Assembly (NCBI RefSeq): GCF_032062105.1
Contig: NW_026938891.1
Location: 434,001-498,000, forward strand
From: Saccostrea cucullata
Lineage: Eukaryota
Direction: 5' to 3'
Length of the DNA: 64,000 nucleotides
The translations under genes were made by a program, and so were the position numbers. Position 1 is the first letter of the stretch; each line of letters starts with the position of its first letter. Below the pieces are notes generated by a model. That model did not search any database, was not told the origin of the DNA, and worked only from the letters and a program-made list of their open reading frames with translations. This document shows, piece by piece, positions 38,017-53,038 of the stretch.

Positions 38017-40401
38017 ATGATCAGGTTATTTCTTTTCTTTATTGGAGCTATTTATGTTAATTCCCATCCGTATTACAGGGATCAGATTCCCAATGGGTAT
38101 GCTGTTTTCAACCCGTGTGGCAGTGGTTTTTGGGAGGCTGTAGGGCACTATGACCCTCTTCATCACACACATGACAAAAACCCATTTGGAATGGTAATAT
38201 TTATTTGAGAATTAATATGTAGTAATCAAAAGGCTGTTGAAATTCTTATTGATCCAAAAACTTAGTTGATTGTTTCATAGACTATCATTCCAATAACAGC
38301 GTGTCACTTTGTTAGATCAAACTACAATGAAGCGTAAAATTTCCCGTTTGAATGGAACGTCTTGAGCTATCTTTAGAACGATGATTGTCATACAAAGACA
38401 CTCCCATTTCTTTAGAAAGGAAAAATCGGTCAAATGGTTCATTCGAATACCTGAAGCATACCTTTTGCACACTTGTAGAAATGTTTTCGGTCTTACATTT
38501 TGAAAACATCACTTTTTGACACATAAATACATTTTCACCTTGAATATTAAACTATATCACGTCTTATTGCTGAATATTATTTTCAGGGTCCGTCATCAGT
38601 AAATCTCTTCAGATTATCCTAGCTTCATCTCTGTTTCATACTTTTCCGGCGTACTTCCCAAAACAACTTAATTAATTGACAGCCCATCTATTTTTCGACA
38701 CCGTTTTTATTGTAGATCTTGATATGGAATGGTTTTAAAGCAGGTTCCGCATAACATCGCCAATCTTGTGTTTAAGCACTACCACAAGTATTGTCCGAAT
38801 GGAACTCCATAAGAATCCAACACTTTTCCTCAACAAACTATCATCTTACAACATGCAATGACAAATTCCCAACCTTTTATCAAAATTCTGTTGTTTTCTT
38901 CAGTTTTTGGTCAAAGGTATTCAAAACACCATCTGGACCTCTCTAATTTCTTAAAAATATTACTGATTTTGAGGGTTTAAATAAAAAGTTTTATGCTCAC
39001 TAGTCCATTAACTAGAGGATTTCGATGAGACTGTACCCCCCGCCTCCCATATGGTTATAACTGGTGAAAAAATGTTTTCCTGTGAAAAGGACCAAAAAGT
39101 AAAATAGGAGGTGCACAATGGCAACATGTAATAAAGATTCTGTGAAAGTTTCATCAAATTTCATTCAGTGGTATGAGAGGAGTTTTTATGCTCACTACTA
39201 TATCCACTTTTGAATAAAAGGGGTGTTCGGTTAGGCTTTTGTTTTGTGTCAGGGTTGTATACTATTGTTTGCAGCTAACTGTTAAGTTTCACGTTTCGTC
39301 ACGATCTTTTTCGTCAGATGCATCCAGCGTATACAATTCACGTGATTGTGTTACAGCAAAGTTGGAAAGTTATTTGCAGTTAGGAGGCGTGTACAATTTA
39401 CCTTGAGTGCAGCTGTCAACTAGATCGTGACGTAACGTGAAACTTTACAGTCAGCTGCAAACAATAGTATTTAAATGGGCTACATCCTATTGTGTTACAG
39501 CAAAGTTGGATATTTGAATGGGTAAATGTTTCTTTGGGGTCCAAAGTACGGAATTTTTTTTTAAGTAAGATAAATAACTCGATAGTGTTGAATGGTTTAG
39601 AGAAAACATCCCCTCCTCGGGCCTTCGGCCCTCGGAGAGAATGTTTTCTCTAAACTATTCAACACCATCTCGTTATTTATCCCTTACATATTTTCGTTGG
39701 ATTATTTCCAGTAAAGTTGAAATATAATAGAGATCTTTTTCTATGGACGTCGTGTGTACATTCCCACTGATTCCCGGTAATAATGACTTTTTTGTTAAGG
39801 CCTTCGCCGCTGCTGGACATCAGTGGACAACTGCCCTTTGTAACGCAGACTCAGACGGTGATGGGGTGACCAATGGTGCTGAGTTAGGTGATCCTAATTG
39901 TACTTGGACTGCAGGGGGCACTCCAGAGGGTAAATCAACCGGTCAACCAGGTACCTTCTATAATTATTAATCCTTATATGTTATATTCCACAGATAAAGT
40001 TTTATACACTTCTTTGATATGGGAAGAGAGACAGAGACTCATAGATTGGTGTCCCTGCACTCAAGTCAGAGGTGCGGGCTTTTGAAAAATGATCATGATT
40101 GAAGAAGCGGAGGATGAGCCAGTAAATATACAGAACAGTTTGATATAGGGATTTCCCCCGCAAGATTAAAATCCTGAGGGAAAACCCTACTATTCAGTTT
40201 ACTTTTCAGGGAAGGGGAAAGTGCTCTACAAGTCTGGAAAGAAAAAAAATCTTGTTTTCGCACACATTTCTTTATTTTTATTCCATAATTGTTGAGAATG
40301 GAAAATAACTTTTTTTAGGAATCTGTGAGCCGATTGGTTCCGGGGCCTGTTCTTCTGTTGCTTTCTCTTGTGGTTGTCATGGACATGCCTGCGTTGGTTA
40401 A
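38017..40401 (+). CDS. Temptin-like secreted protein, copy 1 (136 aa)
   Basis: Exons 38017-38193, 39800-39950, 40319-40401. Signal peptide, then HPYYRDQIPNG..NPC..WEAVGH..NPFG..F...G..WT..LC..DSDGDG.TNG.ELGDP.C.W..G..P....PGICEP, the temptin / DBH-like monooxygenase N-terminal domain pattern. Confidence 0.9.
39259..39470. mobile_element. MITE with ~48-bp TIRs in temptin-like copy 1 intron 1
   Basis: atactattgtttgcagctaactgttaagtttcacgtttcgtcacgatct / agatcgtgacgtaacgtgaaactttacagtcagctgcaaacaatagtat. Confidence 0.85.
39569..39680. repeat. ~112-nt palindromic element
   Basis: gataaataac..gtgttgaatggtttagagaaaacat..gggcc-ttc-ggccc..atgttttctctaaactattcaacac..gttatttatc. Confidence 0.8.
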
Positions 40402-41594
40402 CTTTTGTTTTATTTTGAAATAAACTTTTTTACTGTATGAATTTTTTTATTTTCATTACTTAACTCGAAGTTCCTGTACATTACACACAGTGCTGCAAAT
40501 CCATCCACACACATTTGTTTTTATCAATGGAGTCTATAAATGATAATTTCATAGAGATAGATAGCAGCTGAGCGTTACAAAACGTTATCAGTAGAAACAA
40601 AGTTAGTTTCTCGTTCCTGGTGCTACGTCAAATCCAAGACGTTTAATTAATATAATAAAGACAAGGATCATTTCTTTGTCAAGCATCCGGCATTAGAAGT
40701 GAAAGTTGCGGGTCTGTTGCATGAAACTTTAAACCTCAAGGTCTTGGTATGGTTTATATTAGATTCCAAATTGTTACAATGAAAAGCGTCATCCTTAGGT
40801 GTGGCACTTTACCTAAATAAGGTAACCTCTCTGGGTAAAAAATTCTCAAAGTTGACGTTTCACAACATACAATCAATCATTCAATATTACATATGGTAAG
40901 ATGTGCACAGAAAAAGGAATTTCCAGAACTAAGGTGACCCCTTTCCACCTCAATATGACAGAAACCTGGTGCAAATAGATTTTATCTTTATTAGCAAGTT
41001 AAAATTGCTGTACAAATACTTGAATAAGCATATTCAGTTCTATTAAATTATAAATTCTTTCTGTCTTTTCTCTAAATTGTTCGTTCGTATTGTCCAAAAT
41101 TTTGTGTAGATATTCAGACCTTAGTACATGTACACACGTGCAGCAATCATTTTGTAATCAACAAGTAATTAATATGAGTATTTCTCTCAGCCGATTTTTA
41201 CTATTAAACAATTGGGATGTTTTGATTAGCTAATTAACTCGTAATGTTATTTACGTGTCTATACTAGATTACACTCCCTTCCTTATGATTTCTTTTCGTC
41301 AATTTTTTTTACCGAATGCACATGTATGCACATGTATGTACATGTATATTTTAAATAAAGTCTAGACACATTAGGCCAACCTTAAAATACTGCTTCTTTG
41401 CCCTATCTTAAATGAGGTCGAAAAAAATAGGTCGGTAGATTAGTGCTTATTTTCAAATCTATTTTCTGGAATGTATATAAAAAAATAATTGTTTCCTATG
41501 TTAAAGACGTTTTTTGAGTTGGGCCAGTTTCATCCAATCGGTCGGGAGATGACAACTAAACAAGTATTCAAACATGAGTTCATTAAGGAGGATA

Positions 41595-41692
41595 AAAACT
41601 TTGGTCCATTTCAGCTCGTGTGTACTACTCTTTACAGTTACACAAATTACCTAAGACTTTAGAAATCCTGACGGCTTTGACCCTGAGCTATA
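41595..41692 (+). promoter_or_regulatory. Putative proximal promoter motifs of temptin-like copy 2
   Basis: aaaactttggtcc (41595-41607), acggctttgaccc (41671-41683) and tata at 41689-41692, paralogous to 37803-37883. Confidence 0.4.
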
Positions 41693-51239: not shown

Positions 51240-51282
51240 TTCTCCATTTGTGATAAAGACGGGTTTAAACAGACTATTAAGG

Positions 51283-53038
51283 ATGATTTTGTTTTATCTT
51301 AGTTTGATTGGATTAAGTAGTGTCGGTGCCCTTCCTTACTACAGGGACAGAATTCCTAATGGATATAAAGTATTTAATCCCTGCGGATCCAGCTACTGGG
51401 AAGCAGTGGGACATTACAGTCCATTCACCCACACTGCTGAGAAGAACCCATTCGCCCTAGTAAGTATCATAGCATTCATCTTCGGGGTATATTACTTACA
51501 TTGTTCCTTATATCTTCACAAACTCAGGTGACCTTTTGCTATCCTTTTTCGTCTGTCGTCGTGCGTTGTGTGTTTAAAACATTTGAACATTTTCAGTTTC
51601 TTCTCTATACAACCACTCAACCAATTTCAATTAATTTTGGAATAAAGCATCTATGGGTCAAGGGGAACAAAAATTCTGAATTTCATGGACTCTGCCCCTC
51701 TGGAGCCTGAGGGCAAGGGCCAAAACCACTAAAATTGATGCAATCTTTAATATAATATCTTTACGCCTGAACAGCAAGCAGACAAAAACTACTGGCATGA
51801 TTGTAATCAGCATTGAGTCCTCTACCAAAATTTTGAAATCCTTTACCCCAGGGTCAGGGGTTCTATAGTGCTAAGGCTAGGCTAAATAGTCTTTAAAAAT
51901 CTTCTCTGCTCCTGGGCAGTAGATAAACTAACCTGGGACGGGGGTTCTTGATTTTATAGTGAAATTGATAAATTCTTTGAAATCTTCTTCTCTGCTCCTG
52001 GGTACTAGTATTAAATAAACAAACCAAGCACATAGTTTTGTTGAATAAGGCTTCCTCTTCAAAACTTTGAATTTCATGACCCCGGTTTTAGAGGTTCTAG
52101 TTTAAGGGCGGGGCTCTATTCTTTATATAGTGAAAATGCATAAATTCTTTAAAAATCTCCTCTCCTCCTGGGTATTAAACCAATGAATTATGTACATAGT
52201 TATGATGAGCAAGAATGTCTCTCCCTCTGCGTCAGGGGATTCTGGTTATAGGACAGGGCTCAAACGATTATATAGTGAAAATGCATTAATTCTTCGAAAA
52301 TCTTTTCCTTTGCTCCTGGTTATTAAACAAATCATGGTATTATGCAAATGATCTAAGTACACGTTTATGATGAAGAAAGGCGCCTCAATCAAAATGGTTA
52401 CTTTCAGGGCCCTTGGGCCAGGGTTACATTTGATGAAAAGGATTTAAATGAGAGCAACGAAGTTTAATTTCACATTAATTTACTGCAAAATAAACAAGAT
52501 GTACATTATATTTAATGTGCATGGATGTGAACAGGGCATTAACACTGTTTTCATTTATACTTCCTTAAGGATTTTAAGGCGGCCGGACACACGTGGACTA
52601 GAGCTCTTTGTATGAAGGACTCGGACGGCGATGGGAAGACTAATGGCGAGGAACTGGGGGATCCGCACTGTCACTGGACCGAGGGAGGTACCCCCAAAAG
52701 GAGTTCTACAGGACAACCAGGTATATTAATGTTAAAGCGATAATCACTGTACTCAATAGCACAAATATACCATTATATTGTTAAACCAACGTTTACTGCT
52801 CAAGACTGTTATGCAATAAATCTACATCAATAAATCAATAGATCTTACAATAAACAATGATTTTACTATATATGAACTTTTTGCTAAGAAAATATTCTTT
52901 ACAAATTTTATATTTTGAAATGATTTCTTTTTTCTCTCCACTTTTCAAGGTATTTGTGAACCAGTTGGGTCCGGGCCGTGTACATCAGTTGTATTTTTCT
53001 GCGGATGTCAGGGATCAGCTTGTGTTTCAAGAAATTAG
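51283..53038 (+). CDS. Temptin-like secreted protein, copy 3 (138 aa, more divergent)
   Basis: Exons 51283-51459, 52570-52720, 52950-53038 (177/151/89): LPYYRDRIPNG...DFKAAGHTWTRALCMKDSDGDGKTNGEELGDPHCHW...GICEPVGSGPCTSVVFFCGCQGSACVSRN*. Confidence 0.9.
51523..52425 (+). mobile_element. Helentron-associated element with ~170-bp satellite-like tandem units (oyster Cg170-like)
   Basis: Head ctcaggtgaccttttgc..cgtctgtcgtcgtgcg..aaccaatttcaa..aaagcatc..aagggga, then repeated gtgaaaatgcat(a/t)aattctt..aaatct..ctcctgg units. Confidence 0.65.

Follow-up and report, generated by a model that had tools for sequence, protein, structure and literature searches.

Three temptin-like genes lie in tandem in the window (the whole 64,000-nucleotide stretch of Saccostrea cucullata DNA that was analyzed), and they raise the question whether the two histidine-rich members, copies 1 and 2, are secreted metal-binding proteins and how copy 3 departs from them. 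All three genes are located on the + strand and consist of three exons, separated by GT-AG introns with shared phases 0 and 1 (Table 1). The introns, together with the identity to annotated proteins, bear out the original prediction of three co-oriented three-exon genes: copy 1 (136 aa; P0126) and copy 3 (138 aa; P0013) are identical to RefSeq proteins named "temptin-like [Saccostrea cucullata]", and copy 2 (136 aa) is contained in P0125 ("temptin-like"), a RefSeq model with six additional N-terminal residues and an in-frame upstream ATG at 41795. Four of the six introns were seen spliced in RNA contigs from four runs of a related organism. Exact contig joins were found for intron 2 of copy 1, intron 1 of copy 2 and both introns of copy 3. 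The donor of copy 1 intron 1 is used as well, but its join was assigned to exon 2 of copy 2, which is nearly the same sequence as exon 2 of copy 1 (145 of 151 bases shared), and the join of copy 2 intron 2 is absent among the 15 joints listed, with 322 further joints existing. The RNA run search gave only small word shares; therefore, no habitat, tissue or expression level was drawn from it, and contig depths were not used for ranking the genes. The mature products of copies 1, 2 and 3 contain 8, 9 and 5 histidines, respectively, and 8 cysteines each. These counts agree with the original prediction, and the predicted cleavage sites VNS/H, VGA/H and VGA/L and the motifs HHTHD, FTHTAE, CGCHGH, CGCQGS and DSDGDG were all located where it had placed them.

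Table 1. Exons of the three temptin genes and the residues and motifs located in them.
Feature	Position	Strand	Content
Copy 1 exon 1	38017..38193	+	16-residue predicted signal peptide; PF24784 37 bits, cut-off 27
Copy 1 exon 1, residues			His1 at 38065; Cys18; His28 at 38146; His33/His34/His36 loop 38161-38172
Copy 1 exon 2	39800..39950	+	Helix; Cys57; DSDGDG calcium-type loop at 39848; NGxELGDP; Cys77; PF24784 69.6 bits
Copy 1 exon 3	40319..40401	+	Cys96; Cys104; CGCHGH tail 40369-40386; stop; splice joint 39950-40319
Copy 2 exon 1, coding part	41813..41989	+	His1 at 41861; His28 at 41942; HHTH at 41957
Copy 2 exon 2	43811..43961	+	Splice joint 41989-43811; Pfam match
Copy 2 exon 3	45234..45316	+	HCGCHGH tail 45281-45301; stop
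Copy 3 exon 1	51283..51459	+	Leu1 at 51331; His28 kept at 51412; Thr33; His34 kept; Ala36
Copy 3 exon 2	52570..52720	+	DSDGDG loop at 52618; additional His76 and His78; PF24784 73 bits
Copy 3 exon 3	52950..53038	+	CGCQGS tail at 53000; stop

Each of the six exon pieces lies above the gathering score of PF24784 (Temptin_C; cut-off 27), and the whole copies 1 and 3 reach 119.9 and 121.5 bits against the same cut-off. A protein atlas search gave no match outside PF24784 and otherwise temptin clusters only. With the temptins of Aplysia, Biomphalaria and the bivalve mantle the oyster copies share the signal peptide, the IPNG, GH and NPFG motifs, the DSDxD loop, NGxELGDP and the flanking Trp and Cys residues; Trp52, Cys57, DSDGD (60-64), Cys77 and Trp79 are present in all three. 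Two studies describe the DSDxD calcium-type loop with two flanking Trp and a Cys pair as a temptin feature (PMC10075465, PMC9210306). Typical temptins carry a GGG loop after His28, whereas the subfamily of the copies has a Y(D/N)PxHHT loop, which is one residue longer, and a CxCHG(H/N)xC tail, which contributes a further Cys pair and at most two His. Our literature search found no paper on such an HH-loop/CxC-tail subfamily. The copies are three intact tandem genes of the temptin family and belong to a subfamily that is bivalve-wide.

This subfamily comprises 50 sequences from oysters, mussels, ark shell, pearl oyster, venerids, Mactra, Mya, Dreissena and unionids. Membership was set by the CxC tail without using the histidines, and 208 other temptins served for comparison. 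Before counting, P0002, P0003, P0006 and P0008 (intron read-through), P0133 and P0218 (giant repeats), P0125, P0126 and P0013 (duplicates of copies 2, 1 and 3) and three poorly covered rows were dropped. His33 is present in 37/50 subfamily members vs. 11/208 other temptins, His34 in 43/50 vs. 9/208, His114 in 34/50 vs. 6/208 and His116 in 28/50 vs. 1/208. Histidines per mature domain amount to 7.3 in the 41 core members and to 3.8 in the comparison set. Residues near the His sites vary freely; at Leu32 and Ser110, the top residue is found in only 7 and 9 of 34 representatives, respectively. Conservation in orthologs had been proposed as a check, and the sites are indeed held across bivalve orders and specific to the subfamily. 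Two residues have to be taken out of the special cluster: His28 occurs family-wide (204/208 other temptins and all three copies), and His36 is poorly conserved (11/34 representatives; His116, 20/34). In an 89-column FastTree phylogeny, support was too weak to show that the whole subfamily is a single clade. A crude coupling analysis of 258 sequences, too shallow for placing the histidines, ranked Cys96-Cys104 on top and gave only weak partners for position 1.

The oyster copies start with hydrophobic leaders of 16 residues. Cleavage directly before residue 1, as predicted, fits the register of the family: the (-3,-1) rule holds there in 47/49 subfamily members and in 226/242 eukaryotic temptins (16 further rows without the anchor pattern were left out), compared with at most 55% and 38%, respectively, at eight other registers. 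The same register was found in 73/75 bacterial proteins, described below, and in 105/105 further relatives. Signal peptidase would thereby free residue 1, which across the family is Tyr, Phe, His, Leu, Arg, Lys or Ala and in bacteria mostly Arg. His1 had been regarded as a mark of the metal binders. It is present in 30/50 subfamily members, but it is just one usual residue at this position, found in 35 (17%) of the 208 other temptins next to Tyr in 77 and Phe in 55, and the Ala1 paralog P0012 keeps the remaining histidines. Bacteria and animals keep one register although the residue at position 1 changes, an observation that makes the free N-terminal amine a candidate ligand. In the LPMO histidine brace and in CopC, a mature His1 is combined with a second His beside it in space on a beta-sandwich fold. 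Copies 1 and 2 likewise have a predicted free His1 and further conserved His; copy 3 has no His1. However, the oyster model has no beta-sandwich and an unrelated fold, and any likeness would be convergent.

Copy 3 was expected to differ at exactly the histidine sites. This applies to His1, His33 and His114 (Leu1, Thr33, CGCQGS). His28, His34 and His50 are retained, however, and two further ones, His76 and His78, are present in addition, so that not every His site differs. Copy 3 is also more basic only in relative terms (pI 6.55 vs. 5.19 and 5.37) but not outright, with 11 K+R and 12 D+E. Copy 3 is sister (support 97/97) to P0007, a Crassostrea protein with His1 and HH, and the absence of His1, His33 and His114 in copy 3 is a derived loss. 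Among the 34 representatives, 13 are without at least one of these three residues; 10 are without His1, and 5 of those keep His114. All three are lacking in copy 3, P0024 and P0038, which represent three separate clades. On the tree, the 6 losses of His33 call for 6 changes and the 7 losses of His114 likewise for 6. The three residues form the most co-lost triple (mean r 0.46), matched as best of 35 triples by 0.0012 of 5000 shuffles in a test that ignores kinship, for a triple chosen after data inspection. A co-loss test that takes the tree into account had just 4 supported independent pairs to work with and did not reach significance (median p 0.5-1); no single pair survived correction for 21 tests (best p 0.0096). 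His1, His33 and His114 may tend to be lost together, a tendency that is weak once kinship is counted.

The temptin domain is homologous to bacterial CxxCH proteins (hhalign: 95 columns, probability 99.88, E 4.4e-32), and His28 aligns with the His of this motif. The bacterial proteins occur in Myxococcota, Bradymonadia and Planctomycetota and show a weak match to NCBIfam NF041762; 75/75 match PF24784. CxxCH is present in 75/79 bacterial loci and in 106/111 further relatives with the NGxELGD motif. The four loci without it (two ORFs cut at a downstream Met, two short pieces) and 7/118 further proteins without NGxELGD were left out. The NCBIfam model "GEGP motif-containing diheme protein" is matched by 113/142 temptins below its cut-off (best E 5.3e-7). 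Oyster and bacterial proteins share the cleavage register and, in the models, the helix order. The oyster copies, however, lack both CxxCH cysteines and would have other disulfides; W-E-A-V-G-H is found in place of CxxCH, so that among the c-type cytochrome traits the proximal His at the motif position is present and CxxCH itself is absent. The motif His stands at positions 18-26 in bacterial domains and 24-35 in eukaryotic temptins. Apart from this His, the bacterial domain shows no conserved His or Met, and in 20/75 none is present. In animals, about 9 residues are inserted immediately ahead of His28, among them a Trp23 that hardly ever varies. A resemblance to the Cyc2 cytochrome-porin head had been considered, and no such family appeared in profile or family searches.

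Confident models of the oyster protein and a bacterial member were obtained, with pLDDT values of 91.0 and 91.3. The oyster protein is predicted to form five short helices without a strand of at least three residues, and His28 and the His38-region bridge appear in both models. Confidence is lowest in the tail with His114 and His116 (pLDDT 77 over residues 111-120, 57 over the final two). Fold searches with both models gave no Foldseek match at E <= 0.001 and no VIA match at Z >= 2, which is not evidence of a new fold. PDB sequence searches with temptin profiles yielded 0 matches in one case and a single match of E 0.18 in the other. A homodimer prediction with haem and calcium scored 0.00 without contacts and was used neither for nor against any reading.

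In 54/63 long relatives scanned, the temptin domain heads copper monooxygenases, in line with its known occurrence at their N-terminus. The N-terminal domain, the cleavage register and His28 are common to the oyster copies and these DBH-like copper type II monooxygenases (PMC2762978). In contrast, the oyster genes end after exon 3, and P0126 and P0013 contain only PF24784 without PF01082 and PF03712. The long relatives listed have a GGG-type loop, not HH, with P0143 as a part exception.

The reading that we tentatively prefer, without giving it quite an even chance, is that copies 1 and 2 are secreted proteins which bind one Cu or Zn ion via a His cluster (His1 with its free amine, His33/His34 and His114) on the likely former haem site of a bacterial CxxCH ancestor, and that copy 3 lost His1, His33 and His114. 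Signal peptidase would expose residue 1, the DSDGDG loop would bind calcium, and four disulfides would stabilise the fold and anchor the tail with its histidines to the N-terminal half. A single transition-metal site could be closed by the added imidazoles together with the N-terminal amine, which in the ancestor was probably the sixth ligand of the haem. Such proteins might buffer or hand over Cu/Zn outside the cell, e.g., to temptin-headed copper monooxygenases, and copy 3 would bind metal weakly or not at all there and act by its more positively charged surface. The gene models, the His conservation, the co-loss, the fixed register, the shared His28 and the copper-enzyme fusion partner all speak for this reading. 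The His1 of ordinary temptins, the representatives without His1, the low confidence of the modelled tail, the non-significant tree-aware test and the variation of His36 and His116 speak against it, as do two listed mussel-larva temptin rows with negative log2 change under copper, which were not matched to the His-rich subfamily.

It seems quite improbable that the histidines are structural or lineage markers without a metal role and that the changes in copy 3 are ordinary paralog divergence. The variable residue 1, the 13 representatives with incomplete His sets and the non-significant tree-aware test would fit such divergence, but four His positions with few counterparts in ordinary temptins persist across bivalve orders amid freely varying loop and tail neighbours. 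It is also doubtful that the copies act in the extracellular matrix or in chemical signalling as calcium-binding proteins, as other mollusc temptins do (shell matrix, pheromone complex), with the histidines as pH- or metal-triggered cross-linking or adhesion points instead of a defined site. The DSDxD loop is kept in all three copies, and published work places temptins specifically and abundantly in the mantle of zebra mussel and Pacific oyster (PMC9210306, PMC11464482, PMC13664851), reports a female bias for a freshwater mussel (PMC6754070) and describes an attractant role in gastropods (PMC10075465). However, the published mantle temptins could not be tied to the His-rich subfamily: five mantle-specific Pacific oyster accessions match none listed for the His-rich Pacific oyster clusters, in lists that are maybe incomplete. 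In addition, the histidines stand at fixed positions and form no low-complexity runs.

We consider it unlikely that temptins still hold a non-covalent (b-type) haem, with His28 and the free N-terminal amine as its ligands as in cytochrome f; the bivalve histidines would then be a second metal-docking site, copies 1 and 2 secreted haem/metal redox proteins and copy 3 haem-only. His28 is found in 254/258 eukaryotic domains, and the Gly in front of it does not vary among 142 aligned sequences. The bacterial CxxCH and the diheme-model matches below cut-off fit this idea, and the bacterial domain has no other conserved His or Met while its cleavage register is fixed. Ligation by His and N-terminal amine is known in cytochrome f, CooA and PefR, where, as in temptins, the His follows some 20-30 residues after an exactly processed N-terminus (cytochrome f His25; PMC8044140); without a sequence or fold match to cytochrome f, this is an analogy only. 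Temptin holds the place of DOMON in DBH-like enzymes (PMC2762978) and is also fused to cytochrome b561 (P0239) and ferric-reductase FAD/NAD domains (P0259). Haem b binding and electron transfer are described for some DOMON domains, but the DOMON of DBH itself binds no haem (PMC10691727). Both haem-attaching cysteines are absent in eukaryotes, the Trp23 insertion could fill the pocket, no solved cytochrome matched the oyster or bacterial model at the thresholds given above, and the top PDB sequence hit for the bacterial profile (E 0.0049) is confined to the CxxCH region. Purified temptins of Aplysia and Biomphalaria are also not known to be coloured, which counts against bound haem. In a wider version, to which we likewise give little credence, temptin would be an unrecognised haem-binding electron-transfer domain from bacterial cytochrome c, with the same two ligands, that powers the copper monooxygenases it heads. 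Bivalves would have added a His copper site and so made copies 1 and 2 free-standing secreted proteins with both haem and copper, which reduce copper or deliver it, and copy 3 would be a natural site-less control.

Temptins are found widely among molluscs, annelids and oomycetes, and their domain stands at the N-terminus of an entire class of invertebrate copper monooxygenases. Their biochemistry has so far been described only as that of a calcium-binding "EGF-like" pheromone or shell protein. The CxxCH link, the fixed N-terminus and the bivalve His cluster lead to two concrete, testable candidate cofactors, haem and Cu/Zn, and the three genes at one locus offer a natural comparison and a direct test of temptin function. 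If the metal site is real, it would be a new extracellular Cu/Zn ligand in oysters, whose known plasma metal binders include dominin and segon (PMC6530089). If haem is still bound, the function of the temptin family would be rewritten.

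Copies 1, 2 and 3 belong to the known temptin family. Gene models were taken from the window sequence and spliced by coordinates; all three genes lie on the + strand, have identical intron positions with GT-AG ends and encode products of 136, 136 and 138 residues, each with a leader of 16 residues. Since the models equal the RefSeq proteins P0126 (copy 1) and P0013 (copy 3) letter for letter, and P0125 (copy 2) minus six leading residues, the genes are already annotated, all as temptin-like proteins of a Saccostrea oyster. Together with the shared intron positions and with contigs of a related organism, taken from four runs and spliced at the modelled ends of 4 of the 6 introns, this confirms the originally predicted trio of co-oriented 3-exon genes. 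The Pfam Temptin_C cut-off was passed by all six exon-1 and exon-2 pieces. The mature proteins of copies 1, 2 and 3 contain 8, 9 and 5 His, respectively, and all have 8 Cys (common positions 18, 57, 77, 96, 104, 111, 113 and 118), so the predicted counts for copies 1 and 2 hold on the spliced models. Copy 3 retains His28, His34 and His50 and has a pI of 6.55, compared to 5.19 and 5.37 for copies 1 and 2.

Copies 1 and 2 are identical at 120 of 136 residues; copy 3 has 92 residues in common with copy 1 and 91 with copy 2. Of the four-fold sites in mature exon 1, 8 of 15 differ between copies 1 and 2; for exon 2 the figure is 4 of 30 and for exon 3 it is 2 of 13. The likeness also covers about 20 intron bases on either side of exon 2; exons 2 and 3 may have undergone gene conversion or a younger duplication. 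The annotation of S. echinata assigns both counterpart first exons to a single gene, with isoforms X1-X3. The genome is rich in temptin domains, with at least 27 exon-2 matches among 30 candidates scored. Close exon-1 and tail matches outside the trio were absent among the matches listed in the genome searches, and in the five further first exons of the genome that were readable, position 1 is Tyr or Phe and the loop is of the usual GGG type.

Features of the window besides the three temptin-like genes
Feature	Position	Strand	Basis or remark
Upstream in-frame ATG, start of the RefSeq copy 2 model (142 aa)	41795-41812	+	lengthens the leader alone
Short unit repeated in tandem and, about 700 bases on, its reverse-complement array	about 42100-43560, copy 2 intron 1		by eye
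Repeat element between the two arrays	near 42850-43140, copy 2 intron 1		by eye; high contig depth over region
Multi-exon gene, presumably with cadherin-like repeats and a membrane segment at the end	about 9000-17150	+	by eye
Open frame, presumably C-type-lectin-like (WIG, EHC, WND)	23010-23294	-
Exons of a presumed NmrA-type NAD(P)-binding protein (GATGxxG)	56351-56659 and 62695-63006	+
353-codon open frame, C-terminal half hydrophobic	29878-30939	+
Broken reverse-transcriptase-type mobile-element-like pieces	20349-20881, 32366-33018, about 46650-47300		by eye

For comparison, the best 120 of 1050 and the best 150 of 2698 matches were sampled, and 258 domains were mapped onto copy 1 numbering, leaving out read-through models, giant repeats and duplicates. 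A CxC tail was found in 50 short proteins, the named ones being from oysters, Mytilus, Tegillarca, Pinctada, venerids, Mactra, Mya, Dreissena and unionids. Compared with the 208 other domains, this bivalve subfamily shows His33 in 37/50 (11/208), His34 in 43/50 (9/208) and His1 in 30/50 (35/208), while His28 is nearly universal (50/50 and 204/208). His36 (14/50 vs 2/208), His114 (34/50 vs 6/208) and His116 (28/50 vs 1/208) lie at sites that are empty in many of the 208. By these frequencies His33, His34, His114 and His116 mark the subfamily and His28 the family; conservation of the His sites was borne out for the four subfamily marks, and His1 is only enriched.

Among 34 subfamily representatives with less than 90% identity, the pairs formed by His1, His33 and His114 gave the three lowest non-trivial values (p 0.048, 0.014 and 0.0096) of the 21 pairs of sites first tested; His36-His116 reached p 0.076. 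Joint loss was strongest for this triple among all 35 (mean r 0.46; p 0.0012 by shuffling). On a tree made without the His columns, losses were mostly separate events, and sign tests of co-loss were not significant with only four supported independent pairs. Copy 3 clusters with a Crassostrea protein (support 97/97) which has His1 and HH, so the simplest reading of its His losses is that they are derived. In the Magallana paralog P0012 residue 1 is Ala, yet HH and CGCHGH are intact, which on sequence counts against a strict requirement for His1. P0143, a protein of 451 aa with His1 and an RHT loop as in the subfamily and no other Pfam domains, may bear on the origin of the subfamily.

Of 142 aligned temptins, 113 weakly match an NCBIfam di-haem protein model; even the best of these matches (E 5.3e-7) falls far short of the model's cut-off. 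A bacterial genome scan returned 79 temptin-domain loci, mostly in Myxococcota, Bradymonadia and Planctomycetota, and in 75 of these 79 the reading frame has a single CxxCH, placed 38-60 residues ahead of NGxELGDP; all 75 match PF24784. In a second set, from a bacterial-profile search, CxxCH occurs in 106 of 111, the other five being eukaryotic by name or source. Two short temptin pieces without CxxCH (L093:2-232 and L103:1168-1377) lie on small contigs that carry the names Shewanella and Brasilonema; these pieces have a eukaryotic look and may stem from contamination. The temptin and bacterial profiles align over 95 columns (probability 99.88, E 4.4e-32), with His28 on the His of CxxCH. Predicted models of oyster P0127 (pLDDT 91.0) and a bacterial member (pLDDT 91.3) are alike in helix order and have a common bridge from His28 or the CxxCH His to the residue preceding NPFG; a search of solved structures gave no fold match for either model.

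Position 1 was set seven residues ahead of the IP motif. At this register the (-3,-1) signal-peptidase rule is obeyed by 226 of the 242 domains from eukaryotes and by 47 of 49 subfamily members, in agreement with the predicted cleavage before residue 1; for bacterial-type domains the figures are 73 of 75 (first set) and 105 of 105 (second set). No other register exceeds 38%, 55% and 71% in the eukaryotic, subfamily and 75-domain bacterial sets, respectively. Residue 1 is Tyr (83), His (61), Phe (55), Leu (12) or Arg (12) in eukaryotic temptins and Arg (52) or Phe (11) in bacterial domains. A second conserved His or Met was not found in the bacterial domain, 20 of 75 having none at all. Because the register is fixed while residue 1 varies and the bacterial domain keeps no further His or Met, these alignments suggest that the alpha-amine, rather than the side chain of residue 1, is the ancient functional group. 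This would resemble cytochrome f, in which the amine of the processed N-terminus is a haem ligand; PMC8044140 describes binding by N-terminal Tyr1 and His25.

The original statement that the temptin domain also heads copper monooxygenases was upheld, as copper type II monooxygenase domains were found in 54 of 63 long relatives scanned. One of these, P0239, has cytochrome b561 in addition, while P0259, outside the 54, has ferric-reductase FAD and NAD domains. A protein-atlas cluster of PF24784 members bears the automatic name 'Ferric-chelate reductase'.

That temptin still binds haem b, with a metal dock alongside, is unlikely in our view. Temptin replaces DOMON in DBH-like enzymes (PMC2762978); according to PMC10691727, haem b binding and electron transfer occur in some DOMON domains, DBH's DOMON being without haem binding. 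A whole-word search of the open literature found no paper combining temptin and heme (in this spelling). About equally improbable is a matrix or pheromone protein in which the His are cross-linking points. Bivalve temptins are described as mantle-specific (PMC9210306, PMC11464482, PMC13664851), listed in a tyrosine-pathway table (PMC4445274) or female-biased (PMC6754070), and those of mussel larvae as copper-exposure markers (PMC8696127). None of the five mantle-specific Pacific oyster accessions is among the accessions listed for His-rich clusters. That the His have no metal role appears somewhat less probable still.

Most likely, although we hold this tentatively, copies 1 and 2 bind a single Cu or Zn ion at a putative site on the former haem face, which copy 3 lacks. 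A search of the open literature found no earlier account of the His-rich subfamily, of its co-lost triple or of the fixed N-terminus. Copies 1 and 2 would first be secreted, whereupon His1 would offer a free amine and an imidazole; the HH loop, directly after the old haem His, would contribute ligands, and His114, on the disulfide-tied tail, would join them around the ion. In copy 3 this putative metal site would be gone. The bound ion would be buffered, or passed on to extracellular copper enzymes.
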